A DNA stretch of 20,783 nucleotides from a virus, in UHGV virus genome UHGV-0270338; one strand, 5' to 3'. The translations under genes were made by a program, and so were the position numbers. The number at the start of each line of letters is the position of its first letter. The stretch's first letter is position 1. Below are positions 1 to 20,719 of the stretch, in pieces. The notes below the pieces were generated by a model. That model was given only the letters and a program-made list of their open reading frames with translations. It was not told where the DNA came from and searched no databases.

Positions 1-244
1 CTGATGTCCGGCGGTGCTTTTGCCGTTACGCACCACCCCGTCAGTAGCTGAACAGGAGGGACAGCTGATAGAAACAGAAGCCACTGGAGCACCTCAAAAA
101 CACCATCATACACTAAATCAGTAAGTTGGCAGCATCACCCCCTGATTGTGTTCCCTTCAATTGATCTATTATTTTTATCAGTTATTTAGTATGCTTACCT
201 TATCAATTAAAGTTTCATAATTACAAAATTGGGTCAGTATATAA

Positions 245-1336
245 ATGAATAAAAGAAAAACGCTTTTCAATATACAAGCACTAAGGTTTATTGCTGCAGC
301 CATGGTGGTTTTGGCACATGCCGAACTTGGACAATATGGCATTGGGAATATCGAAATCCTTGCATCTCTGGGAGGATTTGGCGTTATTATATTTTTCATA
401 ATTAGTGGGTTTATTATACCTTACGTAGCATATGGTGGCTCTCAATCAGAAGGAGAATTCAAAATATCTGCAGGGAACTTTTTTATGCGAAGAGTAATAA
501 GAATAATCCCGGTATATGCTTTAATTACCGCCCTTTGCGTTCTATCAGCCTTCATAGTAAAACATTATATATCTTCCCCAACTCCACCTATTGCTTATTG
601 GTGGCCCGAAACAAAAATCAGTCTTCAATGGTATCTTGAGAGTATTACATTTACTCACTGGCATCGCGATGCAATTCTAAGTATAGGTTGGACATTACAA
701 CTTGAATTTTTGTTTTATACTTCTTTTGCATTTTTTATTGCTATCAAATTATCAAGGTTAGAGTATATAGAGATCTTATTTTTAACTATATCCATAGTAG
801 CTAATATTTTAACTTATCAAAATAACAGCATCATATTCGAAATTCTTCCGTTCATGAAAACACTGGCAAGACCAGAAATGGTCGTATTTGCTATGGGTAT
901 GTTTATGTATCGATTATACTTACTGGGCGCTATGTTAAAAAAAACAATTGCGCTTACAATATTAATTTTGTTTATTCCCACATTCTTATTATGTGAATAC
1001 TTTAATATTACAACAAACATGGGGGGGGAATGGCATCGTCCTTTGATATGGGGGTTTTTCGCTTTTTATGGTGTCTGGGCAGCGTTGAGCCTTGAAGGTA
1101 AAATAAAACCGGCTAAACTTATTATTTTCCTCGGTGATGCTTCATATAGTATATATTTGACGCATGGTTTGATTACAGCTTGGGTATCATATATGTTTGT
1201 GTCTTTCGGACTTATTGATTATTCCAATGTATTTCTATATATTGGAATATACTTTATAATAAGTTGTGCGCTTGGCAGCGTCATTCATATGTACATAGAA
1301 AAACCCATCGCAGAATTTTTAAAACGTTTTGTTTGA
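245..1336 (+). CDS. Acyltransferase family 3 integral membrane protein (O-antigen/LPS O-acetyltransferase-like cargo gene)
   Basis: 363 aa; N-terminus LRFIAAAMVVLAHA typical of acyltransferase-3; multiple hydrophobic segments; strongly AT-rich relative to flanking prophage DNA; sits distal to the tail-fibre genes where serotype-conversion cargo genes usually sit. Confidence 0.7.
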   Translation: MNKRKTLFNIQALRFIAAAMVVLAHAELGQYGIGNIEILASLGGFGVIIFFIISGFIIPYVAYGGSQSEGEFKISAGNFFMRRVIRIIPVYALITALCVLSAFIVKHYISSPTPPIAYWWPETKISLQWYLESITFTHWHRDAILSIGWTLQLEFLFYTSFAFFIAIKLSRLEYIEILFLTISIVANILTYQNNSIIFEILPFMKTLARPEMVVFAMGMFMYRLYLLGAMLKKTIALTILILFIPTFLLCEYFNITTNMGGEWHRPLIWGFFAFYGVWAALSLEGKIKPAKLIIFLGDASYSIYLTHGLITAWVSYMFVSFGLIDYSNVFLYIGIYFIISCALGSVIHMYIEKPIAEFLKRFV

Positions 1337-1388
1337 CCAAATGGTCATAACTACCCCCCTTAAAATACGAAAGTAAATAATTAGAACA

Positions 1389-1417
1389 TGTGCTTTGAGT
1401 TAAACACTCAAAGCACA
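1389..1417 (-). terminator. Perfect 11-bp stem hairpin (tgtgctttgag / ctcaaagcaca), probable terminator in convergent intergenic region
   Basis: Inverted repeat read directly; the T-rich run is on the minus-strand side, so more likely terminates the Tfa transcript than the acyltransferase. Confidence 0.35.
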
Positions 1418-1564
1418 AAATAAAAAGCGCTGCCATTGTCTATTTTGCCCCTTCTCACGCTCGTTTTTTATTTTATAATAATACACCTCCAGTTACACTT
1501 TTGTAATTAAAAGCATGAATCATCAATTAGTTCATCCCTTAATCTAACTCTTCCCCAAACGTTC

Positions 1565-2152
1565 CTATTCTGGTTCGGTGGGCCAGTTGATATTTGGCGC
1601 AGATGAAGTATCTATAGCCTGAATGGCTTTTATGTACTGCACCCACGCAATCAGACTTTCCTTATCCCCATCACTGATGATGTCCAGTCGCAATTCTGTC
1701 TGCCAGAGACTTATTTTCTCCTGCGCTTCAGCCAGTAACGCAGCCTTCTTCTGTTCAGCGGCTTCTACCTCGGCAACGTGCTGCGCGTCAGTATCTGTTA
1801 CCCACTTTTTGCCGTCCCACTTTTGATATGGTCCTGATGGCGCAACAGTTGTGTACCCCTTCCTGACTGGGCCGATATAATCTATAGTGGAAGATGAGGT
1901 ATCATCGGTAGAATATACCGTTTCACCACGATGATCTTCATCCTGTCGCCATCCGGTGCCCGTGAACATAAAAACCTTTCCAGCAACCATTTCACCTGGA
2001 TCAACATCTGTTGAATTACCCGGCATACTGACGCCAGCGTTAATATATTCATCTGACCAGCCAGCATATTCCATGGTCACTGCATCGTAATAAAAACAAC
2101 GAATATCACCGGCCTGCGTTGCCAGACCATTTTCATCAAAGACAGGTTTCAT
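1565..2152 (-). CDS. Phage tail fibre assembly protein (Tfa)
   Basis: 195 aa; EDHRGETVY, YQKWDGKKWV and C-terminal DTSSAPNINWPTEPE motifs match the Tfa family; start overlaps tail fibre stop by 1 nt. Confidence 0.7.
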   Translation of the reverse strand: MKPVFDENGLATQAGDIRCFYYDAVTMEYAGWSDEYINAGVSMPGNSTDVDPGEMVAGKVFMFTGTGWRQDEDHRGETVYSTDDTSSSTIDYIGPVRKGYTTVAPSGPYQKWDGKKWVTDTDAQHVAEVEAAEQKKAALLAEAQEKISLWQTELRLDIISDGDKESLIAWVQYIKAIQAIDTSSAPNINWPTEPE

Positions 2153-3234
2153 TACTTTGCCCTCACCAAGAAATTGAATGCGATGTTGCGCGGTCGGTTC
2201 TCGTTTGCAATTGATACCGATGGGTCTTTTCCAGCGCTGAAGAGAATACTTTGAGCAACAGTGCTTCCGCCTGGCTGGAGGTTCGTTAAGTTTTGTGCCC
2301 CCCCAGAATAAAGCGCACCAGAATTTGTAGTATTCCCAAAATATTGAACAAAACCGACTTCACCAGTGATATTTCGGATGGCATCCACCTGAGTACTCAG
2401 CAATGCCCTTCCTGAATCGACCCCACGACCATCATCCCAGATACGCGGGAATTCGCCTCGAGCTTCGGGAAGTGTAAGTCCAGGGAACACCTGTGCAAGT
2501 TTGGGGTATACCGCAGCAGAAAATGACGCGCCGTTAAATTTTAAAAACACCATGTCAGACCATTCGCTTATGACCGTATTCGGCATTGCTGCGGAGGGCC
2601 AGAAGAATGGGACACCGATAGCTGGCGCACCAGACCCCATCCCCACATCTGCTGGCGTTGGCTTATATTTTTCAGAAAAGAGCTTATACTTCCAAATCGT
2701 AGTGTTGCCGGTTACAGCACGAATGATTGGTGTTGCTCCAGCAGAATTTACTAGCGGAAGATAAATCTGCACTCGTTGTTTTGATACGGAATCATACAAC
2801 AACGTTAGCACCATTCCGTAATCAATCCCAAAATCCGGGTCTGTATTACCGCCGTATGCATAAAAACCAGAACTTGTTGCGCTCGAAAGCAAGTTAATGT
2901 TAGAACCAGCGATATTTATACCGATACCCAGGTCCGTTAAATCAAGGTTTTCGAGAGCCGTTTTCACCGTGCCATCCGATTTGATATCGCCAAATGGATT
3001 TTTGCGGCTTAACAGCAGAGCACGAAGCGCGGTAAGCAGCTGGTCGTGCCGCTCCTTCTCCAGGCTGGCACCGGATGCCTCCACCACGCTGCAAAGCTCT
3101 TCCTGCAACATGTCAAAGTAGTCATCATCCAGATCGGTGGCTGGCGTGCCGGTCTGGGGGTTACCACGGGTAAAACCGTTCTTACCCGCGCCGAACTTAT
3201 CCTTCTGCGCGGTTTTCGTGTCTATACGATGCAT
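2152..3234 (-). CDS. Phage tail fibre protein
   Basis: 360 aa; conserved tail-fibre N-terminal region and C-terminal ...[18 protein letters not shown] typical of side tail fibre tips; immediately upstream of Tfa. Confidence 0.65.
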
Positions 3235-3237
3235 GGA

Positions 3238-3822
3238 TTACTCCGGATATTTAAAAATTACGTAGGTATGCGACGGGCAGAGTTTGTTAAGCACACATTC
3301 GACAACGGTGTCGCCCCAGATACGCAGTGCGGAATCACAGGGATCGCCACATGTCATCCAGGTGGTGTTGGTGGCGGCTGGCATGTTGATCTGCCAGTAA
3401 TACCGCCATTCCGGCGCATTCACCGCGTCAGTACAGGCCGATGAGCAGGTGAACGTGCTTTTGTCGTATCGCGTGATGGTGGCATCTGGTCTGCCCAGGG
3501 CAGCAAGCTGTGCAAGATAAAAATCCTCGTTGATGCCACCCGACAGGTTAACCTTCGCATCCAGCCGTTGCTGGCGCTGGCGAAGGGTCTGTGTCCCTGT
3601 AGGAATACATTCATCCGGCAGGCCGCACAGACACTCCCAGCGGTTTATCAGTTCGGTGGTGGTGCGCGGATCCAGCTCCCGCATCAGGGCATCCGCACGC
3701 TGATGAACACGGGTTAATGACGGTGCCGCACCGGCAATCGCCGGATCGCTGGCTGACCACGCCGGACCGGGCGGCAGCAGTGCCGACAACAGACGGATGT
3801 AATCATCGTTTGTCACGTCCAT
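3238..3822 (-). CDS. YmfQ-like phage tail protein (DUF2313-type)
   Basis: 194 aa; position between baseplate J-like fragment and tail fibre as in e14/Mu-like tail modules. Confidence 0.55.
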
Positions 3823-4208
3823 GAAATCGTCCCCAGAACCGCCAGTTCATTTTTTGCAATGGAGATATTGTCCGCCGGTGCAAGCAACTGATGGCTGTAT
3901 TCCCCGTTCGCACCGGAAATCGCCTCACTGATACGCGATACCTTCAGTTCTCCCTGCGGATAACCATCACGCAGCAGGAACGAACGCAACTCCGCGGTAA
4001 TGGCAGCCCGTATTTCCGGTGTGTCCGGCGTCACGCGGATATGAAAATCCACTTTATGCGCCACCGGCCTGAATACATACAAATCAGAGCCTGCCACCGG
4101 GGCCAGTGGCTCAATGTGTTGTCTTGCCGCCGTTTCCGTTGATTCTTCCGGAATGGGATTAATCAGGTCACTGCTGGCAATCATCACACCGACAGTCCCC
4201 GTTCCCAT
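3813..4208 (-). pseudogene. Baseplate J-like protein, C-terminal fragment only (5'-truncated)
   Basis: 131 aa ORF resembling only the C-terminal part of baseplate J proteins; no upstream baseplate, tube or sheath genes; the upstream space is occupied by opposite-strand genes. Confidence 0.45.
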
Positions 4209-4258
4209 CCAGTGGCGGTAACCGACCTTGCAGGGTCGATATGATGAGGAGCAGCAAA

Positions 4259-4622
4259 ATGGCTAGCGAACGCAGTACTGATGTGCAGGCATTTATCGGG
4301 GAGCTGGACGGCGGCGTATTTGAAACCAAAAATCGGCGCAGTTCTCAGTGAAGTCGCTTCCGGTGTGATGAACACGAAAACCAAAGGTAAGGTCTCGCTC
4401 AACCTAGAAATCGAACCGTTTGATGAGAACCGAGTGAAAATCAAACACAAACTCTCATATGTTCGCCCGACTAACCGCGGGAAAATTTCCGAAGAAGACA
4501 CCACCGAAACGCCGATGTATGTCAATCGCGGTGGTCGCCTGACTATTCTGCAGGAAGACCAGGGACAGTTGCTGACTCTTGCCGGTGAACCTGACGGAAA
4601 ACTCCGCGCAGCAGGTCGTTAA
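4259..4622 (+). pseudogene. yfdP: yfdP-like gene interrupted by a frameshift in an A5 tract
   Basis: ATG at 4259 with strong SD (gaggag) opens a frame that stops after 30 codons; the 4281..4622 ORF continues in the adjacent frame; deleting one A from aaaaa (4328..4332) fuses them into about 120 aa. Confidence 0.45.
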
Positions 4623-4687
4623 TATCGTTTTTAATTAACTGATTATTTATCTCATCACTGAATATCTTTATATAGTGAGGACTTATT

Positions 4688-5512
4688 ATGTCTCAGAACT
4701 TAGACGCAACCGCAATTAATCAAATCCATGCCCTTATTTCTGCTCAGGGTGTTAATGAAATTATCAGTAAGATTGGTGCCGATGCTGTGGCATTGCCTGA
4801 GAATTTCCGCATTCATGATCTGGAAAAATTTAATTTAAATCGCTTCCGTTTCCGTGGTGCGCTTTCCACTGCCAGCATCGATGATTTTACCCGTTATTCT
4901 AAAGATCTTGCAGATGAAGGCACCCGCTGCTTTATCGATGCTGATAATATGCGTGCCGTCAGTGTGCTTAACCTAGGTACTATTGATGAACCAGGTCACG
5001 CAGATAACACCGCCACACTCAAACTGAAAAAGACAGCACCGTTCTCTGCTCTGTTGTCTGTTAACGGCGAGCGTAACTCCCAGAAGTCACTAGCAGAATG
5101 GATTGAAGACTGGGCCGACTATCTTGTGGGCTTTGATGCTAATGGTGACGCTATTCAGGCAACAAAAGCGGCTGCGGCTGTCCGTAAAATCACGATTGAA
5201 GCAAACCAGACCGCTGATTTTGAAGATAATGACTTCAGCGGCAAACGCTCCCTGATGGAGTCTGTCGAAGCGAAGACCAAAGACATTATGCCAGTGGCAT
5301 TTGAATTTAAATGCGTTCCGTTTGAAGGTCTGAAAGAACGTCCGTTTAAATTACGCCTCAGTATTATCACTGGCGATCGTCCTGTACTGGTTCTGCGCAT
5401 TATTCAGCTGGAGGCGGTGCAGGAAGAAATGGCTAACGAATTTCGTGATCTGCTTGTTGAGAAATTCAAGGACAGCAAAGTAGAAACCTTTATTGGTACT
5501 TTCACCGCCTGA
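4688..5512 (+). CDS. yfdQ: YfdQ-like DUF2303 prophage protein
   Basis: 274 aa, same length as KplE1 (CPS-53) YfdQ as I recall it; followed by yfdR/S/T-like genes in the same order. Confidence 0.65.
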
Positions 5513-5639
5513 TTTCATTACTGCAAATGCCCCTGCGGGGGCATTTATGGAAACGTAATTTACTCAATAATCGCCGGATGGTGAGGGATTCTTTTTACCA
5601 GAATTCAGCGCGGTGCAGCGCATATACGTGGAGAACAAA

Positions 5640-6176
5640 ATGTCATTTATTAAAACTTTTTCCGGGAAGCATTTTTATTATGACAGGATAAATAAAGACG
5701 ACATCGATATTAACGATATCGCGGTTTCCCTTTCAAATATCTGTCGCTTTGCCGGTCATCTTTCGCACTTCTACAGCGTCGCCCAACATGCGGTTCTTTG
5801 CAGCCAGCTGGTGCCGCAGGAATTTGCTTTTGAAGCGTTAATGCATGATGCAACAGAAGCGTATTGCCAGGACATTCCCGCACCACTGAAACGCCTTCTT
5901 CCTGACTATAAACAAATGGAAGAAAAAATAGACGCCGTAATCCGTGAGAAATACGGGTTACCCCCAGTTATGAGTACGCCCGTGAAATATGCCGATCTCA
6001 TCATGCTGGCAACCGAACGCCGCGATCTCGGGCTTGATGATGGCTCTTTCTGGCCTGTACTGGAAGGTATCCCGGCAACAGAGATGTTCAACGTGATTCC
6101 ACTGGCACCGGGCCATGCCTACGGGATGTTTATGGAACGCTTTAACGAGTTATCGGAGTTACGCAAATGCGCATGA
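5640..6176 (+). CDS. yfdR: YfdR-like HD-domain phosphohydrolase (5'-deoxynucleotidase family)
   Basis: Start moved to ATG 5640 (SD ggaga 5 nt upstream) giving 178 aa; HD-type motifs (HFYSVAQHA, LMHDATEAY). Confidence 0.65.
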   Translation: MSFIKTFSGKHFYYDRINKDDIDINDIAVSLSNICRFAGHLSHFYSVAQHAVLCSQLVPQEFAFEALMHDATEAYCQDIPAPLKRLLPDYKQMEEKIDAVIREKYGLPPVMSTPVKYADLIMLATERRDLGLDDGSFWPVLEGIPATEMFNVIPLAPGHAYGMFMERFNELSELRKCA

Positions 6177-6529
6177 ATGTTTTCGAAATGGAAGGGTTTC
6201 TTCGTGGGAGATGTGTACCGCGAGATCTGAAAGTAAATGAAACAGATGCTGAATACCTGGTGCGTAAATTCGATGCGCTTGAAGCTAAATGTGCAGCACA
6301 GGAAAACAAAGTAATACCAGTGTCAACTGAACTGCCACCAGCAAATGAAAGTGTTTTGTTATTCGATGCTAACGGAGAAGGCTGGCTAATTGGCTGGCGT
6401 TCTCTCTGGTACACCTGGGGACAAAAAGAAACCGGAGAATGGCAGTGGACATTTCAGGTCGGGGACCTTGAAAACGTCAATATCACTCACTGGGCAGTAA
6501 TGCCAAAAGCACCGGAGGCTGGAGCATAA
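6167..6529 (+). CDS. yfdS: YfdS-like (DUF551) prophage protein
   Basis: 120 aa; synteny after yfdR-like; start overlaps yfdR stop. Confidence 0.5.
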   Translation: MRMNVFEMEGFLRGRCVPRDLKVNETDAEYLVRKFDALEAKCAAQENKVIPVSTELPPANESVLLFDANGEGWLIGWRSLWYTWGQKETGEWQWTFQVGDLENVNITHWAVMPKAPEAGA

Positions 6530-6834
6530 TGACCACTTTTACCGACAAAGAACTGATTAAAGAAATTAAAGAGCGTATCAGCAGCCTTGACGTGCGAGAC
6601 GATATTGAGCGCCGTGCTTATGAAATCGCACTCCTATCTCTGGAAGTAGAACCAGATGAACGCGAAGCTTATGAATTATTCATGGAAAAGCGTTTCGGTG
6701 ACTTAGTAGATCGTCGGAGAGCAAAAAACGGCAATAACGAATACATGGCATGGGATATGACTCTCGGTTGGATCGTCTGGCAGCAACGAGCTGGTATCCA
6801 TTTTTCAACAATGTCACAGCAAGAGGTGAAATAA
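6529..6834 (+). CDS. yfdT: YfdT-like prophage protein
   Basis: 101 aa; synteny; overlaps neighbours by 1 nt on each side. Confidence 0.45.
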   Translation: MTTFTDKELIKEIKERISSLDVRDDIERRAYEIALLSLEVEPDEREAYELFMEKRFGDLVDRRRAKNGNNEYMAWDMTLGWIVWQQRAGIHFSTMSQQEVK

Positions 6835-7184
6835 TGGAGCCATACAGCCTCACACTCGATGAGGCCTGTCATTTTCTCAAGATATCCAGACCGACTGCCA
6901 TTAACTGGATACGCACAGGGCGTCTTCAGGCAACACGCAAAGATCCCACTAAGAATAAATCTCCTTACCTCACAACACGACAAGCCTGCATTGCGGCTCT
7001 TCAGTCTCCGCTGCATACTGTCCAGGTGAGCGCGGGTGATGGCATAACAGAGGAAAGAAAATGTCACTCTTCCGCAGAGGTGAAATATGGTACGCCAGTT
7101 TCACATTGCCGAACGGTAAAAGATTTAAACAGTCTCTTGGAACAAAGGACAAAAGGCAGGCGACAGAACTCCATGACAAGCTAA
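6834..7184 (+). CDS. xis: Excisionase (Xis), P22-type
   Basis: 116 aa from ATG 6834 (SD gaggtg upstream; TAATG overlap with yfdT stop); HTH-like [26 protein letters not shown]; 3' end overlaps int start as in lambdoid int-xis modules. Confidence 0.6.
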
Positions 7185-8224
7185 AGGCTGAAGCATGGCG
7201 GGTCAGCAAACTTGGTGAAATACCTGATATAACGTTCGAGGAAGCGTGTGTCAGGTGGCTTGAAGAGAAAGCACATAAAAAATCACTGGACGATGACAAA
7301 AGCCGGATCGGATTCTGGCTTCAACATTTCGCAGGAATGCAACTAAGAGACATTACTGAATCAAAAATTTATTCAGCAATGCAGAAAATGACGAACCGGC
7401 GTCATGAGGAAAACTGGAAACTCAGGGCAGAAGCATGCAGAAAAAAAGGGAAACCTGTTCCAGAATACACGCCAAAACCAGCGTCCGTTGCAACGAAGGC
7501 TACGCATCTTTCATTTATAAAGGCCCTACTAAGAGCCGCAGAGCGTGAATGGAAAATGCTGGATAAGGCACCAATTATTAAAGTGCCTCAACCAAAGAAT
7601 AAACGGATCCGCTGGCTGGAGCCCCATGAAGCACAAAGGCTGATTGATGAATGTCCGGAGCCATTAAAGTCTGTTGTTGAATTTGCACTGGCAACAGGCT
7701 TAAGACGCTCGAACATCATCAACCTTGAATGGCAACAAATAGATATGCAGCGCCGGGTGGCATGGATAAACCCGGAAGAGAGTAAATCAAACCGCGCAAT
7801 TGGCGTTGCGCTGAATGATACTGCATGTCGCGTATTGAAAAAACAAATCGGGAATCATCACCGTTGGGTATTTGTGTACAAGGAAAGCTGTACCAAACCA
7901 GACGGAACGAAAGCGCCAACAGTAAGGAAGATGCGGTATGACGCAAACACAGCCTGGAAAGCGGCGCTGAGACGGGCTGGTATTGATGATTTCAGATTTC
8001 ACGACTTGAGACACACCTGGGCAAGTTGGCTGGTTCAAGCCGGAGTCCCGTTGTCAGTTTTACAGGAAATGGGAGGCTGGGAGTCTATCGAAATGGTTCG
8101 TCGATATGCTCACCTTGCACCTAATCACCTTACCGAACACGCACGGCAAATAGACTCGATCCTGAATCCATCGGTCCCAAATTTGTCCCAGTCAAGAAAT
8201 AAGGAAGGTACTAATGATGTGTAA
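7061..8224 (+). CDS. int: Tyrosine integrase, P22-family-like
   Basis: 387 aa; catalytic signature ATGLRRSN (R), FHDLRHTWA (HxxR), VRRYAHL (Y); stop codon 2 nt before the tRNA-Thr-derived att repeat. Confidence 0.85.
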
Positions 8225-8343: not shown

Positions 8344-9678
8344 ATGCGTTACAATCAATTTTCACATTACAAACGCTCCGACACTTTAGCCGGGGAGTTT
8401 ATGAGATACAAGCCCAATCAATACATAATCTGTGATTCTTACGGTAACTACTATTTACGGATCACGCTGCCTGTGTATATGCAGCCCTTTTTTGAAGGAA
8501 AAAGGACGTTTGTCAGGAGTCTGCACACAAGTAATCTTCGTGTTGCACGTAGAAAGCGTGATCAGATTGCAGATGAATACCATTGCTTACGGGAGAGTGT
8601 TGCCCCTGTAAACAGCACAATAGAGAACACGCTGGAACTGTTACGCAGTAAGGCTAAATACGCCAAAACAGCTACCAGAATGCAAGATACAGCGTCTTCG
8701 TGTCCGTCATTGCTTAAAATTCTTGAAATCTACCTGACAATTAACAGCACGAAGAAGAAGCCAGCCACTTTAGCTAAGGCAAGAAAAGCGGTAGAGATGT
8801 TTCTCTCCTACCGTAAAAAGCCTGATATTGCATTGCAAGATGTAAGCCGCACCACTGTTACAGGCTGGATTGAACACATGCAAAAAACCCTTTCACAACA
8901 ATCAATTGCAAATTATATCAGCCCAATGGCCCAGCTATGGGAGTTAGCTTCATCACGTTACCACGATGCGCCAGAAAGGGCGCTCTCCCCCTGGCGAGGG
9001 CATAGGCTTGATGTGGCACAAAGTAGAGAGAGCTACGAGGCATTTTCTAACAAAGAGCTATTGCAGGTGTTGCAAGTATTTTCCGGTAATTCAGCAGAAA
9101 ACAAAGAAATGATGGCTTTGTGTCTTATCGGTGCTTATACAGGTATGCGGATCAATGAGATAGCAAGTCTCACAATAGACGATGTGAAAGAGATCGAAGG
9201 TGTGCTGTGTTTTGAAATCACACAGGGAAAAACGAAAGCTGCGGCGCGTGTTGTGCCTGTACATAGCCTTATCACTCCGTTGGTGTTGTCGCTGCGTGAA
9301 AAGCCTCATAATGGCTTTTTGTTCTATCACGCCAGCATCACAGAACGTGCTGATGGTAAACGTTCCACGTGGCACACGCAGAGATTTACAAGAGCTAAAC
9401 GAAAGGCTTTAGGGGAAAAGGGAACAGAAAGGAAAGTGTTTCATTCTCTGAGACACGGAGTAGCACAGCTTCTTGATCGAAATCAAATTCCAGAAGACAG
9501 GATCGCCCTTCTCCTGGGCCATACACGCGGCAATACAGAGACATTCCGCACATATAGCAAGAATGCAGCTTCTCCAGTAGAGCTTAAAAAATATATTGAG
9601 CTTCTACGCTACCCTGAAATAGAGAAAGGCTTATCAATCAATAAAAAATCAAATTTAAGGCGTAAAACAACGCCATAG
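8344..9678 (+). CDS. Tyrosine integrase of the second element
   Basis: 444 aa (alternative start ATG 8401 with ggggag SD gives 425 aa); motifs TGMRINEIASL (R), FHSLRHGVAQLL (HxxR), LLGHTRGN...FRTYSK (H, Y); unrelated in sequence to the upstream int. Confidence 0.8.
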   Translation: MRYNQFSHYKRSDTLAGEFMRYKPNQYIICDSYGNYYLRITLPVYMQPFFEGKRTFVRSLHTSNLRVARRKRDQIADEYHCLRESVAPVNSTIENTLELLRSKAKYAKTATRMQDTASSCPSLLKILEIYLTINSTKKKPATLAKARKAVEMFLSYRKKPDIALQDVSRTTVTGWIEHMQKTLSQQSIANYISPMAQLWELASSRYHDAPERALSPWRGHRLDVAQSRESYEAFSNKELLQVLQVFSGNSAENKEMMALCLIGAYTGMRINEIASLTIDDVKEIEGVLCFEITQGKTKAAARVVPVHSLITPLVLSLREKPHNGFLFYHASITERADGKRSTWHTQRFTRAKRKALGEKGTERKVFHSLRHGVAQLLDRNQIPEDRIALLLGHTRGNTETFRTYSKNAASPVELKKYIELLRYPEIEKGLSINKKSNLRRKTTP

Positions 9679-13696: not shown

Positions 13697-14059
13697 TTAA
13701 GAAGTGAAAACAGAGTGGAACCCTTCAAGCTGGAAGCCTTTTTTAATTAATGCTGTTTTTGCTGCTTCACTTACAGCATTCAGCGCATCAGCTTTGATGC
13801 AGACAAGGCCAGCATTGCTACGTAGCACATCTACAGGCTTGTTGTCTCCAGCCGTTAAAAACTCACTCATAACAACATAGATATCATCTCCTGATACATA
13901 TTTAGCGCCAGTGCTGGTGATCAAGTCGCCGCATTCAACATCAGCAGGAAGAGAAGCAAAAACCTTGCTTTCTACAGAGGCAAACGGATCAGTACAATAA
14001 CTTACAATATCTGTGAAAGTCTTTCGAACTGGAAATAGAGTGTCTAAATCAATAATCAT
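13697..14059 (-). CDS. Hypothetical protein (possible head accessory, decoration or scaffold protein)
   Basis: 120 aa; immediately upstream of the capsid-like gene, start overlaps stop of preceding ORF. Confidence 0.35.
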   Translation of the reverse strand: MIIDLDTLFPVRKTFTDIVSYCTDPFASVESKVFASLPADVECGDLITSTGAKYVSGDDIYVVMSEFLTAGDNKPVDVLRSNAGLVCIKADALNAVSEAAKTALIKKGFQLEGFHSVFTS

Positions 14060-14268
14060 TTAGTAATCTCCTTAGCTTTTAATTTGATTAATTCATTAAG
14101 GGAAGGTGTAGACGGAGAAGAAGGAGAAAAATATTTTTCAACACAACGTTCCACTTCTTCGACAGAACACCCAGCGTATTTAGCTACCATTTCGGTAATT
14201 TGTGGATTGATCTTTAGCATTTCATCGCGATACTTGATGATTTGCTCTTTATCATTTAAAAACAACAT
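14056..14268 (-). CDS. Hypothetical small protein, first gene of operon B
   Basis: 70 aa; translationally coupled (ATGA overlap) with the next gene. Confidence 0.35.
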   Translation of the reverse strand: MLFLNDKEQIIKYRDEMLKINPQITEMVAKYAGCSVEEVERCVEKYFSPSSPSTPSLNELIKLKAKEITK

Positions 14269-14303
14269 TTATATAAACCTTGTTACCTTGTTTAAAGTAA
14301 GAA

Positions 14304-14323
14304 ATACAACTTTTAAGTTGTAT
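14304..14323. promoter_or_regulatory. Perfect palindrome ATACAACTT-TT-AAGTTGTAT, candidate operator at the operon B promoter
   Basis: 9-bp inverted repeat with 2-bp spacer between the upstream terminator and the first ORF of operon B. Confidence 0.4.
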
Positions 14324-14335
14324 AACGGGCAAAAT

Positions 14336-14365
14336 AAAAGGCAGCATTTAGAGCCGCCTTTTATT
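14336..14365. terminator. Bidirectional hairpin terminator separating operon A from operon B
   Basis: aaaaggcagc-atttaga-gccgcctttt, flanked by A-run and T-run. Confidence 0.5.
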
Positions 14366-14392
14366 AACTTGTACCTATGTAATTACCCTATG

Positions 14393-14420
14393 TTATGCAT
14401 ACTCCAAGATGTATGCATAA
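14393..14420. promoter_or_regulatory. Two copies of palindromic octamer TATGCATA (ttatgcatac ... gtatgcataa), candidate operator
   Basis: Inverted pair of 10-mers, each containing a self-complementary TATGCATA. Confidence 0.35.
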
Positions 14421-14611
14421 CAAAGGAAAAAAGAGGTAATAATGACACTTAAGGAGGAGGAGAAGCGGGGAGCGGAGATTTTACTCCCCTTTAACGACAA
14501 GAAGAATTTTTAATATCGAACCAATAAAGGAAAAATAATCACCCTATATAATTATATTAACATACAATAGATGAAATGTCAAGATATTTTACAACTTTTT
14601 TGTTGCTTTTT

Positions 14612-14974
14612 TTATTCTTCTGTGATAACGGCTAAGCGTTGAGCGAGTTCGATAAGGCCATCTCCCACATAGCGAACATCAGATTCAATATCTTCTATCC
14701 AGTTTGATAGCTCCCATATCTGATCGGCTGTCAGGTATGCGTTCTCACGCTTACAGAGCATCTCTACACGCTTAGAGAGGTGCTCAAAGGCATTTACAGC
14801 TAAATCCCAGTGTTTAAACGCCTCATTAAGTGCCGCTGGCGTATTTTCTTTATATGCATCAAGTTCAGCGCGGTTTAAAGGCAGGAGGTAATCATCCTCA
14901 TAATAATTAATTAGTGAGTAAATTGTATCATACGTGTTTTTGTTCATATTAAAAGTCTCCATAGTGATCATCAT
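14612..14974 (-). CDS. Hypothetical helical protein
   Basis: 120 aa ORF; likely true start at internal ATG (MNKNTYD..., ggag 9 nt upstream). Confidence 0.4.
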   Translation of the reverse strand: MMITMETFNMNKNTYDTIYSLINYYEDDYLLPLNRAELDAYKENTPAALNEAFKHWDLAVNAFEHLSKRVEMLCKRENAYLTADQIWELSNWIEDIESDVRYVGDGLIELAQRLAVITEE

Positions 14975-15772: not shown

Positions 15773-16429
15773 TTAAAATGGAATATCAAAGTCATCATAC
15801 ACATTTGGGTAATGCTTAGAAAAATATGCCTCAATACCATTTGGTAGCTTTAACCTGTGCTTATAGGCTAACGATGTTGCAAATTCTATAAATGATGCTC
15901 CTCCTGTTCTTTTGTCTTTCTTCTGGATGATAAGAGAGGCAAAATTCTCTAACACATCCTCCTCATTATCATTAGCTACCTTTTCACTTGATGAAACAGG
16001 TGTTTCTTCCGTCTCCCACGGTAAAGGCGTATCCCAATCATCATCAAGAACATCAAAAGAAGACTCTTTATTATCTTCCGTAGGGGGAAGCTGATCAGGA
16101 ACAGCTTTAACAGTAGCTTCTTGTTGTGTCTGGGCTTCTTGTCTAGCTTCTTCTTGTGGAATATCTACCACTTGATAGACATTAGAACTTCCTGGTCGTG
16201 CATCTTTTATAATTAATCCCATTTCGAGCAATTTCTTAACCCTTTCCTCTGCTGCTCTTGGTGTTATGCCAAAAACATCGCCTATCTTAGCGTAAGAGGG
16301 AAATGCACGATCAAACCCTTTCAGATAGCAGTAAAGGTTTTTAGCACTATCTGTAAATTTATGCCCGTTTACTTGGCTTATTTTTAGAATCCACATAGGA
16401 ACTTTTACAAATTGTTCTTCATTAATCAT
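15773..16429 (-). CDS. Winged-helix DNA-binding protein with acidic linker and SSB-C-terminal-tip-like tail (candidate replication initiator / host replisome recruiter)
   Basis: 218 aa; N-terminal HTH-like segment (FPSYAKIGDVFGITPRAAEERVKKLLEMGLI); long D/E/Q-rich linker; C-terminus ...YDDFDIPF, close to the E. coli SSB tip DDDIPF. Confidence 0.55.
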   Translation of the reverse strand: MINEEQFVKVPMWILKISQVNGHKFTDSAKNLYCYLKGFDRAFPSYAKIGDVFGITPRAAEERVKKLLEMGLIIKDARPGSSNVYQVVDIPQEEARQEAQTQQEATVKAVPDQLPPTEDNKESSFDVLDDDWDTPLPWETEETPVSSSEKVANDNEEDVLENFASLIIQKKDKRTGGASFIEFATSLAYKHRLKLPNGIEAYFSKHYPNVYDDFDIPF

Positions 16430-16853: not shown

Positions 16854-17616
16854 AAAAAACTCCTTATTCAGTTAAAAGAAATAAAACACCTTGCAAGCCT
16901 GACGGCTTCAAAGTGCATTGATTTTGATTATTTAGAGAAGAATGTTTTTCTGTCCCTCTAATACCTATTATTACATATAAAGAAACATTTGTCAATACCT
17001 TTTCATAAAAAATCTGATCTTTTTCATGCACTTACATTTTTTCTTAGCTATTCGTGCTCTTCTGTGTAGTGCTATTCTTCATTATCCGCTAAAACGCTCT
17101 AAAACGCGTTCTAACGAGATTTTGATAAAAGCAATACATTGCCTTATCTAATGGCTGTTTAGCTCGCCAGAGGCTTATTTAAGGGGCTTATTTTGTATTT
17201 GTTAGGTATATGAAAAGGTAATGGTAAATATAAAACAGAGAGTCACTTTATAAAACGCTCTGTAAAGACCTGTAGTGAGCTTATTATATGTAGGCAATGC
17301 GTTTCCATTCCCTACCCTGCTTAATGCTGTTAGAGAAGCATTTAGACCCCTTATTTTTAATTACCTAAAGTATCCTCTATACATCTCTGTTATGAAACAC
17401 CTCTGAATCCTTCATAAAACACATTATGACGCAAAGAACACTTTTCTAAGGTGATTCCCTTCCTGAACTCTGTTTCTTGCGTCAGAGAGCTACAGAGAGC
17501 TTATAAAGCTATTATTAATAATAAAGTAGATAAAGTAAGTAAGATAACTAAGATAGATAAGATTAATAAGATCAGAATTCTCTTTCGGTGTCGCCTCTGG
17601 CTTTTCCACCGAAAAC

Positions 17617-17740
17617 AATTACACGACTACAGAATGTGGAAGTGGAATTGTATTGAGGCTTAGTGAAATTACACGAGGAAAGCAGAGTGTAATTGAGCTT
17701 TAGCCGCTCTCTCTTCGAGTAATTACACAACTACAGAGAA
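17617..17740. repeat. Array of AATTACAC-containing repeats, including palindrome AATTACAC-N12-GTGTAATT (17667..17694)
   Basis: aattacacgactacaga (17617) and aattacacaactacaga (17721) are near-identical 17-mers; perfect 8-bp inverted repeat between them. Confidence 0.5.
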
Positions 17741-17995
17741 TAACGAGAGTTATTAAATGTAGGAGGGTAATTAAGAGTTAGAGAGAGTTAACACGTAAGC
17801 AATCAGTATGATTGGTTAGGTGATTACTCTTCTGCGCACAGCGCAATAGTATTTCTTCGTGGGCGTTACCGCCACGATAGTTACACGAAGAAAGTAACGC
17901 TTTGCTTTCGGTGTGAGCGGAACGGGCCAGCCAACGTAGCCCGAAAGGTAGCGGAGTAAGGCTGCTTGCCAGAGAGTGAAGCTAACGCCGGAAGG

Positions 17996-18180
17996 CAAAA
18001 GATCATATAAATAAATATATAATATTATAATTTAATAAGTAATTTAATAAATGATCTAATAGGTAACAGAATTCTGTGGGGGTGTCTAACAGAATTCTGT
18101 TAGGGTGGGGTAACAGAATTTTGTTAGGGTACAAATCTCTTTAAAAGTTAAGATTAACAGAATTCTGTGGGGGTAGCTCA
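17996..18180. promoter_or_regulatory. Origin-like region: roughly 65 bp of almost pure A/T followed by four iterons TAACAGAATT(C/T)TGTnnGGGT
   Basis: Iterons at 18064, 18087, 18111, 18155 (spacing 23, 24, 44 bp); each contains the palindrome ACAGAATTCTGT; no ORF support. Confidence 0.55.
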
Positions 18181-18224
18181 CAGTGACCTACCGTTACTAC
18201 CAATCATCACATAGCACTCACTCT

Positions 18225-18700
18225 GTGTAATGCCTTTCTATGTGTGTGCCATAATCCCCTATATTCCCTGTGTAAATCATAGAATAATGCTCTCTATTCC
18301 CTGTGTAATTCCCTACTAAAAAATCCAATGAAAAATGGCTTCAAAGTGCAATGTTAGCTTTCTTCACTTTTACATCACTTTCGCAAAGCCTTGTGTAATG
18401 CGGTTTACAGAGCACCATCAGAAATTGTTGGCTAAAAATTGTTCTGCTTGTTTCTGAACGAGTTTTCTCGTTTGTGCAAATTTTAAAATTTATTTTGTTT
18501 TTACAGCCTTATTTCGTGTAATGCGTGGCATAGCAAGCCCTTTTCTTGTGTTGTCAAGACATTTGGCAACGTTCAAACATCTGTTTAGAAATGCCAAATT
18601 GTTGATCTAACAAATAAACCTGTATAAACAGAACACCATTTAATCTATCCCCCTGTGTATCCATTAGGCATACCAAATGAATACATCTAAATCGTGTAAT
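18225..18700. repeat. Dispersed same-orientation GTGTAAT heptad motifs (about 6 copies) upstream of the serine recombinase gene
   Basis: Copies near 18225, 18269, 18302, 18392, 18517, 18694; two share the longer context tattccctgtgtaa(a)t; opposite orientation to the ATTACAC copies left of the iterons. Confidence 0.45.
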
Positions 18701-18793
18701 ATTCCGTACCCATAAGGCTTGAAACAGACCAAATGAATACGATATACTCATTTGCATTGAAGTAGTGCCAAATCGATACATTAAGAGGATTTT

Positions 18794-19333
18794 ATGAGCA
18801 ATATCGGCTATAAGCGTGTGAGCACTGTAGATCAGAACACTGATCGCCAGCTTGCAGGAGTAACGCTTGATAAAGTCTTTGAAGATAAGCTGTCAGGTAA
18901 AGACACTAACCGTCCAGGATTGCAGGCGTGTTTATCCTATCTGAGAGAAGGCGACACCTTACACGTGCACTCTCTCGACCGTTTAGGACGTAACACCTTA
19001 GACATCCTTGCTTTAGTTGAACAACTTAATAATCGAGGTGTGATTGTTCGATTTCACAAAGAAGGAATCATTGCAGACATTACAAGCGCGATGGGAAAAA
19101 TGATGCTTACTATGTTGTCGGCAGTTGCAACGTGTGAACGTGAACTGATGTTAGAGCGTAAACGAGAAGCGCAAGCCGTCAATCCTACAAAGCGTGGTAA
19201 AGGTAAAGCAGTAGATAGGGAAGGTATAAAGAAAGCCCTTTCCGCTGGCGTGTCAGTGCGTAAAACCGCCGAGAGCTTTAATGTTGCTCCTTCAACGGTG
19301 CAACGTATCAAGAAGGAAGAAGAGGAGGCGTAA
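18794..19333 (+). CDS. Small serine recombinase (resolvase/invertase family)
   Basis: 179 aa; N-terminal YKRVSTVDQNTDRQ with catalytic Ser; GKMMLTMLSAVATCERE resolvase core; C-terminal HTH (VSVRKTAESFNVAPSTVQRIKK). Confidence 0.8.
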   Translation: MSNIGYKRVSTVDQNTDRQLAGVTLDKVFEDKLSGKDTNRPGLQACLSYLREGDTLHVHSLDRLGRNTLDILALVEQLNNRGVIVRFHKEGIIADITSAMGKMMLTMLSAVATCERELMLERKREAQAVNPTKRGKGKAVDREGIKKALSAGVSVRKTAESFNVAPSTVQRIKKEEEEA

Positions 19334-20627: not shown

Positions 20628-20662
20628 TTATTGATTTTCTTGATGGTGCCGATAATAGGAGT
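20628..20662. repeat. att repeat at the intact tRNA-Thr 3' end (right boundary of the second element)
   Basis: Matches 8226..8257 apart from a 2 vs 5 nt spacer difference. Confidence 0.85.
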
Positions 20663-20719
20663 CGAACCTACGACCTTCGCATTACGAATGCGCTGCTCTA
20701 CCAACTGAGCTATATCGGC
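20644..20719 (-). tRNA. thrW: tRNA-Thr (anticodon CGU)
   Basis: Reverse complement reads GCCGATATAGCTCAGTTGGTAGAGCAGCGCATTCGTAATGCGAAGGTCGTAGGTTCGACTCCTATTATCGGCACCA: 76 nt, cloverleaf-compatible, anticodon loop CGT, encoded CCA. Confidence 0.9.

Follow-up and report, generated by a model that had tools for sequence, protein, structure and literature searches.

A predicted promoter–leader–terminator unit and a two-site dyad ahead of the capsid/tail operon of a satellite-like island in Escherichia coli

In lambdoid phages, a strong sigma-70 promoter (PR') placed right after a small regulatory-region gene yields a non-coding transcript of about 200 nucleotides (nt), the 6S RNA, which ends at an intrinsic terminator (tR') in front of the late (structural) operon; inside the operon there are more terminators and no promoters. 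The promoter carries a DNA element for the Q protein, and the known Q binding elements are asymmetric and confined to the promoter. In P4, a phage satellite of Escherichia coli (E. coli), termination within a leader controls the downstream genes, and the leader also yields a small stable RNA, the CI RNA. RNA-based processive antitermination is represented by HK022 put, Bacillus EAR and conAn2, in which a large structured leader stands ahead of a long multi-terminator operon and just after a small protein gene. For conAn, which joins the conAn2 RNA to the ConAn1 protein in Gram-positive conjugative plasmids, control of the promoter is strict and involves DNA looping, and the terminators shield the operon from spurious transcription that arrives from upstream (PMC8191782). 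Here we analyze the control region at 14280-14430 of UHGV virus genome UHGV-0270338, a stretch of 20,783 nt that is E. coli chromosome and is called the window below. By its predicted parts, this region is the 3' half of a promoter-leader-terminator unit on the minus strand, located between the early (replication) operon and the capsid/tail operon of an island. We read the unit as a terminator-gated leader of the late operon combined with a two-site operator for a dimeric regulator; this architecture appears reasonably probable to us, and we are less confident about how the terminator would be passed. The closest systems by logic are lambda PR'-6S-tR' and conAn, and membership in either is not supported because neither a Q-family protein nor an RNA family match was found.

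The unit consists of the following features, in the order of transcription:

14554 to 14582, minus strand: promoter P_L (TTGACA, 17 nt, TAATAT, with a TG-extended -10), found by consensus scan with 10/12 matches plus the TG.
14333 to 14547, minus strand: predicted non-coding leader RNA of about 215 nt, beginning AUAGGGU, with a minimum free energy (MFE) of folding of -61.5 kcal/mol (z = -5.1).
14331 to 14365, minus strand: intrinsic terminator t_L, with the core GGCGGC / GCUGCC (one G-U pair), an A-U extension and then UUUUAUUUU, found as an inverted repeat and by folding.

The 343-bp intergenic region that carries this unit was detected in 308 of 5426 complete E. coli genomes (~6%) at 89-100% identity. 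Homologues of the capsid protein encoded downstream, with 38-78% identity, occur in Citrobacter, Enterobacter, Klebsiella, Cronobacter, Dryocola, Serratia and Sodalis and in metagenomes. About 100 loci of this family were fetched; their gene order is identical throughout, and every one of them has a gap of 355-880 nt between called genes before a first structural gene of 68-75 amino acids (aa). Reading the sequences of these gaps revealed one order in the relatives: TTGACA, 17-18 nt and a TG-extended -10, then TA(T/A)GGG, then a leader of 390-960 nt. At the 3' end of the gap follow a lineage-specific intrinsic terminator, a short inverted repeat, a ribosome-binding site and the ATG. An earlier note, made from the letters of the window alone, had proposed a control region before the structural operon with a terminator, a perfect 9-bp inverted repeat and a pair of TATGCATA palindromes. 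A conserved region does lie ahead of the capsid/tail genes, and all three elements are present where the note had placed them and stand above chance, although some of the roles given to them have to be revised.

P_L is among the three best promoter matches in the 8 kb scanned, and its transcript is predicted to start near 14547. The -35 and -10 hexamers do not vary among 12 E. coli loci, and a few other haplotypes differ in them by single substitutions. All relatives inspected by eye have an equivalent promoter in this position, where it follows the stop codon of the gene before it, and a strict promoter pattern scored it in 70/93 family loci. The element TA(T/A)GGG(T), 4-8 nt past the -10 and at the predicted RNA 5' end, is likewise conserved across relatives. 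With hexamers at a spacing of 16-18 nt and a conserved position, P_L has the features of a sigma-70 promoter, its start site being predicted.

Between the terminator and the ATG (14269-14335), the consensus scan revealed no sigma-70-like site reaching 9/12 matches, and the relatives, whose sequences were read, have no consistent -35 or extended -10 after the terminator. A sigma-70 promoter with the geometry of P_L was also considered for this interval and rejected, as its start would fall inside the open reading frame (ORF). These results bear on the model of the earlier note, according to which t_L ends the upstream operon and the capsid/tail genes have a promoter of their own, with the 9-bp repeat as its operator and the TATGCATA pair as a second operator, for example for a ribbon-helix-helix (RHH) protein. 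The note had put the repeat where that promoter must be, whereas the only conserved promoter of the region, P_L, lies upstream of the terminator; together with it, a structured leader of 215-960 nt would be left unexplained. The model does account for a dyad directly after the terminator in 72/93 family loci, and a dyad inside a promoter would be natural for the family, in which some lineages have it in the P_L spacer with the right half overlapping the -10. In our reading, a weak match (TTGCCC, 18 nt, TGTATT) would put the dyad of the window into a promoter spacer as well. Taken together with the TATGCATA data given below, a separate capsid/tail promoter of this kind seems improbable to us.

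The two arms of t_L (14333-14345 and 14353-14365) are 13 nt long and 92% complementary and enclose a loop of 7 nt. Folding energy is -17.8 kcal/mol on the minus strand (z = -6.6) versus -13.7 kcal/mol on the plus strand. The stem is invariant in 33 E. coli haplotypes, in which the loop alone varies. Relatives carry terminator stems of other sequence at the same position, 45-90 nt before the ATG: GGGGC/GCCCC, GGCGAC/GUCGCC, GGGGCUAC/GUAGCCCC, GCGGC/GCCGC and AAGCCCC/GGGGCUU. A GC stem-loop followed by a U-tract, kept in place despite sequence change, characterizes t_L as an intrinsic terminator at which termination is predicted. The consensus terminator scan did not list it, an omission that we attribute to the A-U extension of the stem, which takes up some of the T-run that is counted.

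The terminator noticed earlier is therefore genuine, but the bidirectional role proposed for it is not borne out. All island genes near 14280-14430 lie on the minus strand, the G-U pair of the minus strand becomes an A.C mismatch on the plus strand, and the relatives have no upstream A-tract. We ascribe the apparent bidirectionality to the A-rich 5' extension, which is missing from 12 haplotypes and from all relatives. The same part of the stem is touched by a length polymorphism:

14362 to 14378, minus strand: 17-nt segment, present or absent among haplotypes and flanked by an ACATAGG direct repeat, identified by haplotype comparison.

In 12 haplotypes, the outer A-U pairs of the terminator stem are lost through the absence of this segment.

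Upstream of t_L, the leader RNA is predicted to fold into a 5' stem, hairpin 1 and hairpin 2, with the terminator as the last element. Its internal features are:

14467 to 14489, minus strand: leader hairpin 1 (GGGGAGU / GCUCCCC), followed by a CU-rich tract; z = -3.5, invariant in 33 haplotypes.
14425 to 14466, minus strand: variable leader tract, CU-rich with triplet repeats; 72% of columns vary.
14387 to 14426, minus strand: leader hairpin 2, with a 16-bp stem and an 8-nt loop, whose arms hold both copies of TATGCATA; -21.3 kcal/mol, z = -6.5.

Hairpin 2 is built from an inverted repeat (14387-14402 / 14411-14426) with 16 nt per arm and 94% complementarity. Across the 33 haplotypes, 99.8% of the pair-by-haplotype cells of its helix are a standard pair. 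Three stem positions are polymorphic in the E. coli type, and at each of them the minus strand retains a G-U or U-G pair. Variable columns in 25 loci make up ~3% both in hairpin 2 and from the terminator to the ATG, and 10-24% in the adjacent coding sequences.

The TATGCATA copies at 14394-14401 and 14412-14419 had been taken for a pair of operators. The motif is over-represented in the window, with three copies versus 0.41 expected and 0/100 shuffles reaching three, which is the point in this pair that speaks for the model with a separate capsid/tail promoter. However, the second copy reads TGTGCATA in 15/33 E. coli haplotypes, a change from U-A to U-G that keeps the pairing and breaks the palindrome. 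The motif is absent from the relatives and from the rest of the island. The idea that the symmetry is confined to the octamers was refuted, as the complementarity of 16 nt per arm extends 8 bp beyond them, in the way of a single hairpin. Tandem palindromic operators of the RHH or MetJ type were rejected as well, given that the second box is not kept as a palindrome and that relatives do not have the motif. In the helper-like phage fragment TATGCATA is not enriched, and L026, another E. coli-associated lineage, has a similar AU-rich hairpin with arms that are not palindromic. From these comparisons we read the TATGCATA pair as the arms of one RNA hairpin, not as two operators.

Among the families of Rfam 15, including C4/CI, EAR, small RNAs and riboswitches, only tRNA reaches the gathering score in the window. 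The best match of the leader is sub-threshold (E = 0.35), and the leaders of four relatives gave none at E <= 0.1. Neither a conserved ORF in the E. coli leader nor an ORF shared by the long leaders of relatives was found. The leader contains two hypervariable spots in an otherwise near-invariant sequence: the 17-nt segment at 14362-14378 and, at 14425-14469, a CTC/CTT triplet-repeat tract with indels of 3, 6 and 9 nt. It also contains a 17-nt direct repeat (14536-14552 and 14380-14396, 82% identical), which on the minus strand reads ATTATATAGGGTGATTA at the predicted RNA 5' end and recurs as ATAACATAGGGTAATTA just after hairpin 2. Antisense to the leader, a plus-strand ORF of 23 codons (14443-14514; MTLKEEEKRGAEILLPFNDKKNF) has a good GAGG ribosome-binding site. 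We consider it probably non-coding: it is frameshifted or start-less in 5/21 haplotypes, and its multiple-of-three indels lie in the CTC triplet repeat.

Folding of the relatives' leaders is strand-specific. The sense MFE is below the antisense MFE in 12/12 leaders, and dinucleotide shuffles for 6 relatives gave z values of -5.2 to -10.6 for the sense strand versus -4.2 to -5.9 for the antisense strand, with similar shuffle means. The long leaders have conserved loops (UCGAAUC, CCCAUAG) in hairpins with changed stems, and one long-leader hairpin shows compensatory changes at 5/9 pairs. In L027, L028, L031, L033, L034 and about 25 further loci, the long leaders occupy the 600-800 nt before the 74-aa gene and carry the conserved loop motifs UCGAAUC, near the 5' end, and UUCCCAUAG. 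The E. coli leader and the long leaders have several elements in common: the promoter, an RNA 5' end with GGG, the UUCUUCUUGUCGUU block with a GC-rich hairpin and a CU-rich strand after it, a pre-terminator hairpin and the terminator. By eye, the GC-rich hairpin after the shared UUCUUCUUGUCGUU block has other stem sequences in the relatives.

Judged by their sequences, the long leaders look like an unannotated large structured RNA, and the E. coli leader looks like a shortened version of it. Stability beyond that of shuffles, strand specificity and compensatory changes identify the predicted leader family as a structured functional RNA; the compensatory evidence comes from the family leaders, and the E. 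coli type shows wobble-compatible changes only.

A promoter of consensus type, an efficient-looking terminator and a compact structured RNA are also what would be expected if P_L, leader and t_L formed a stand-alone gene for a trans-acting small RNA. Such an RNA would act on helper or island mRNAs through its CU-rich, anti-Shine-Dalgarno-like tract, and its position would be incidental or its terminator merely insulating. Short terminated transcripts from lambdoid late promoters in enterohaemorrhagic E. coli act as regulatory RNAs, and AGGAGG-type ribosome-binding sites, which are frequent in the helper-like phage, would be possible pairing partners of the CUCCUCCUCC tract of the leader. Yet this CU-rich tract is the most variable part of the leader (72% of columns), and in the MFE fold it is mostly unpaired, its 3' end alone pairing with the RNA 5' end. 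No phage in the collection shows similarity to the leader, and such a gene would leave the structural operon in need of a promoter. Across the family, leaders vary about fourfold in length and sequence while their position before the structural operon is invariant, which argues for a role in cis. We regard a purely trans-acting RNA gene as unlikely; a trans-acting RNA is possible alongside a terminator-gated leader, with which it is compatible.

The inverted repeats could instead be DNA signals for packaging (pac/cos) or for replication of the island. Satellites need a packaging site compatible with the helper, usually intergenic and repeat-rich, and this region is among the largest conserved intergenic regions of the island. 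However, a BLAST search of the intergenic region against 50,697 phage records, phi92-like relatives included, returned no meaningful match and no shared helper sequence. Strand-asymmetric folding and G-U pairs point to RNA, and promoter and terminator are conserved as such. The origin used by the initiator of the island might, as for lambda O, lie within or beside its own gene (15773-16429). We consider a packaging or replication signal very unlikely.

The second component of the preferred reading, beside the terminator-gated leader, is a dyad that occurs on either side of the unit:

14304 to 14323, no strand assigned: post-terminator dyad, a 9-bp inverted repeat (14304-14312 / 14315-14323) with a 2-nt spacer; z = -5.1 when folded as RNA.
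14592 to 14605, no strand assigned: second copy of the 14-bp dyad, located upstream of P_L; it reads CAACAAAAAAGTTG on the minus strand, ends 9 nt short of the P_L -35 and is centred near -51.

The conserved core of the dyad (CAACTTAAAAGTTG) lies at 14307-14320 and starts 52 nt before the ATG. The 9-bp repeat is perfect in only 2/33 E. coli haplotypes, the other 31 reading ATGCAAC...GTTGTAT; as the outer base is G in 31/33 haplotypes, we conclude that only the core of the dyad matters. The equivalent dyad of the relatives is TAAC-N6-GTTA, at both places. The general form, [TC]AAC-N6-GTT[AG], was found 30-75 nt before the ATG in 72/93 family loci, at P_L in 58/93 and at both places in 56/93, and elsewhere in 19 representative loci (148 kb) there are roughly a dozen matches. 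The copy at P_L begins exactly at -23 or at +11/+12 relative to the start of the -35. The -23 placement is found in the E. coli type and in L036, L086, L092, L100 and L102; in other lineages the dyad lies in the -35/-10 spacer, its right half overlapping or forming the extended -10. The half-sites are kept and the 6-nt spacer is variable (GCTTTC, AAATAA, AGAAAA, AAAAAA, GGAAAT and others). Within a lineage, both copies carry the same variant: CAAC in the E. coli type, GTAAC in the main group and CTAAC in L064 and, imperfectly, in L026.

The copy at P_L lies outside the P_L transcript, which fits a role at the DNA level better than one as an RNA hairpin, and a dyad stem of 4 bp rich in A/U would be a very weak RNA hairpin. 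The dyad displays symmetry, conserved half-sites, fixed spacing, a fixed place at the promoter and more than one copy, which are the features of an operator. It resembles phage 434-type operators (ACAA-N6-TTGT) in its length of 14 bp, in its 4-bp half-sites around a 6-bp spacer that is not conserved, and in occurring more than once, with one copy at a promoter. In contrast to these operators, it has another half-site sequence, and its copies are not adjacent, with a distance of 285 bp in the window and of as much as ~900 bp in relatives. This geometry points to one putative dimeric DNA-binding protein that would act at both sites. The operator character that the earlier note had given to the 9-bp repeat is thus strengthened by the recurrence of the core at a promoter and its conservation across genera; its assignment to a promoter of the downstream operon is not. 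Consensus sites for IHF, CRP, FNR and TyrR, compared by eye, do not fit the dyad. It is not present in the promoter region of the upstream operon. A 42-kb fragment of the helper-like phage Paula contains nine matches, not all of them mapped; the promoter-bearing intergenic sequences of Paula that were read have none.

According to the reading that we prefer, capsid/tail transcripts would start at P_L or read in from the upstream operon, and t_L would have to be passed in either case. By default, t_L would form and leave a short structured leader RNA and little structural mRNA. Expression of the structural genes would then need both P_L activity and passage of t_L. One dimeric protein of the helix-turn-helix (HTH) type would bind both dyads and set the on/off state, possibly by repression at the promoter together with looping or a roadblock at the post-terminator site. 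Upon infection by a helper phage or induction of the island, read-through of t_L would be brought about by a protein factor or by the leader RNA itself; the latter route would resemble put, EAR and conAn2 RNAs, by which polymerase is made terminator-resistant. The mode of passage is one that we infer from the arrangement of the parts. That the structural operon is held off until a helper signal arrives, as the earlier note suggested, is plausible on the same grounds.

Several points weigh against this reading. Start site, RNA and termination are all predicted. RNA-level selection on hairpin 2 is argued from the U-G haplotypes (15/33), which may go back to a single mutation, and E. coli haplotypes show one-sided (wobble) changes only, with no double compensatory change. 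A weak, helper-specific or activator-dependent promoter may also lie after t_L; the TTGCCC, 18 nt, TGTATT match would have the dyad in its spacer. L030, L032, L038, L071 and L104 have other inverted repeats in place of the dyad. Placement of the dyad in the spacer in some lineages and at about -51 in others is hard to fit with a single repressor or activator geometry. For the putative dyad-binding protein, the 91-aa protein of the upstream operon (p91) is one candidate, with a model of low confidence. No antiterminator was identified, and the 120-aa protein encoded next to P_L has no Q-like match in Pfam or in a fold search. We do not know of antiterminators encoded by the likely helper lineage, the phi92-like lytic myoviruses.

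The small regulatory-region proteins of 91, 135 and 120 aa gave no match in Pfam or PHROGs at relaxed thresholds and no sequence match in the PDB. Orthologues of the small upstream-operon proteins occur throughout the family, those of the 120-aa protein at 24-34% identity and in the same position. The AlphaFold2 (AF2) model of p91 is a helix-helix-helix-hairpin of winged-helix-like appearance, with a mean predicted local distance difference test score (pLDDT) of 56, too weak for a structure search. In some relatives, the corresponding place behind the replication gene is taken by a 153-aa protein with HTH_36/MarR matches, to which BLAST did not match p91. The model of the 120-aa protein (p120a) is a generic helical bundle (pLDDT 74.5), and Foldseek returned no match below E = 0.3 for it, only generic helical bundles.

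Compared with lambdoid late control, the locus has the same order: a strong promoter right after a small regulatory-region gene, a non-coding transcript of about 200 nt, an intrinsic terminator and the structural operon. The 120-aa gene just upstream of P_L has the position of Q in lambda, a DNA element is located at the promoter, and the structural operon likewise contains a further terminator and no internal promoter that we could find. A -10-like TAGGGT lies at about +2 to +7, where lambdoid promoters have a pause element; this pause-like TA(T/A)GGG(T) fits the paired 5' end of the leader RNA equally well. The locus differs in that Pfam and fold searches found no Q-family protein, in that its promoter element is a symmetric dyad with a second copy after the terminator, and in that its structural genes resemble those of lytic phi92-like myoviruses, not those of lambdoid phages. 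With put, EAR and conAn it shares a large structured leader, a long operon with more than one terminator and a small protein gene just upstream. Unlike these systems, its leader has no sequence or structure match in Rfam, its host belongs to the Enterobacterales, and antitermination is hypothetical here; moreover, the first terminator follows the RNA immediately and the RNA has its own promoter. The P4 immunity leader is similar as a termination-controlled leader in a satellite. It differs in that no Rfam C4/CI match and no clear seqA/seqB/seqC-type internal complementarity were found here, and in that the P4 leader serves early (replication) genes whereas the island leader precedes structural genes.

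The genes on either side of the unit are:

14612 to 14974, minus strand: last gene of the upstream operon (ORF), encoding a 120-aa all-helical protein, with its stop codon ~29-31 nt before the P_L -35.
14266 to 14281, minus strand: weak ribosome-binding site AAGG (14278-14281) and start codon (14268-14266), invariant among haplotypes.
14056 to 14268, minus strand: first gene of the structural operon (ORF), 70 aa, in the gene order common to all relatives.

The island spans ~12 kb from a tyrosine integrase (8344-9678, plus strand) to tRNA-Thr(CGU) (20644-20719; thrW), and in strain NCCP12480 it adjoins proA. In the upstream operon (16429 to 14612), the gene for a lambda-O-like HTH replication initiator is accompanied by those for three small orphan proteins (91, 135 and 120 aa). 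The downstream operon (14268 to 9760) encodes, in this order, a 70-aa protein, a 120-aa protein, the major capsid protein (PF03864), a 67-aa protein, a tape-measure-like protein (phrog_16051) and a Dit-like protein (PF21821). DNA identity to phi92-like / Justusliebigvirus lytic myoviruses is ~72% for the tape-measure and Dit genes; at the protein level, identity to the phi92-like counterparts is 61% for Dit and only 22% for the capsid protein. The island proteins include no recognizable portal, terminase, protease or member of another virion-assembly family, and homologues of the 70-aa and 120-aa proteins were found in E. coli and Shigella only, deep alignments not being obtained. A scan of genome contigs with the capsid protein detected a single locus. 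The island looks like a phage satellite or an assembly-interference island, with a gene set that, to our knowledge, is unlike those of P4-like elements, phage-inducible chromosomal islands (PICI), capsid-forming PICI (cfPICI) and PICI-like elements (PLE). A literature search for satellites of phi92/rV5/Vequintavirus/Stephanstirmvirinae phages, or for satellites at thrW, returned nothing relevant and no paper on the island.

A strong intrinsic terminator (12633-12609, minus strand; 9-bp stem, T8 tract) lies directly 3' of the capsid gene, and no promoter was found between it and the 67-aa, tape-measure and Dit genes. Such a second terminator, with no new promoter downstream, agrees with an operon relying on read-through, be it by processive antitermination or as simple stoichiometric attenuation. 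In the phi92-like phage Paula, a terminator is likewise placed after the capsid gene.

The upstream operon has a promoter at 16967-16995 on the minus strand (TTGACA, 17 nt, AATAAT plus TG; 11/12 matches). A 14-nt string of it (AGGTATTGACAAAT) recurs in a Paula promoter that precedes the gp121 homologue, within the structural region. The ATGTTA extended -10 of P_L is also present in several late-region promoters of this phage. Between the upstream-operon promoter and a resolvase-family recombinase (18794-19333), the interval 17000-19333 includes ~1.8 kb with no convincing gene. Beside the island, window positions 1-8224 hold a prophage remnant with a tail-fibre assembly protein, a Mu gp48-like protein, a Baseplate_J fragment, DUF2303 and an acyltransferase. 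The same interval contains another tyrosine integrase (7061-8224), in tandem with that of the island. The strain with an exact match has paoCD in place of the remnant, which suggests tandem insertions in this region.

The analysis describes a variation on known regulatory logic in a seemingly undescribed satellite family, with a mechanism proposed from sequence and comparison. As a tentative wider proposal, an undescribed structured-RNA family (~215 nt in E. coli, up to ~960 nt in other Enterobacterales) may, together with the two-site dyad, gate the capsid/tail genes of an undescribed family of satellite-like islands that parasitize phi92/rV5-like lytic myoviruses. Acting in cis, the RNA would either sense infection by a helper or serve as a processive antiterminator, which would make it the equivalent of put, EAR or conAn in a satellite of Gram-negative hosts. 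How structural genes are silenced and then switched on at the arrival of a lytic helper is a central question for satellites and assembly-interference defence islands, and the module would answer it concretely with no more than a promoter, a leader RNA, a terminator and a pair of identical operators. If the leader is a cis-acting antiterminator or sensor RNA, it would represent a new class of RNA in Enterobacterales. If true, the mechanism would also provide a handle to engineer or detect satellite induction in phage therapy with phi92/rV5-like phages.

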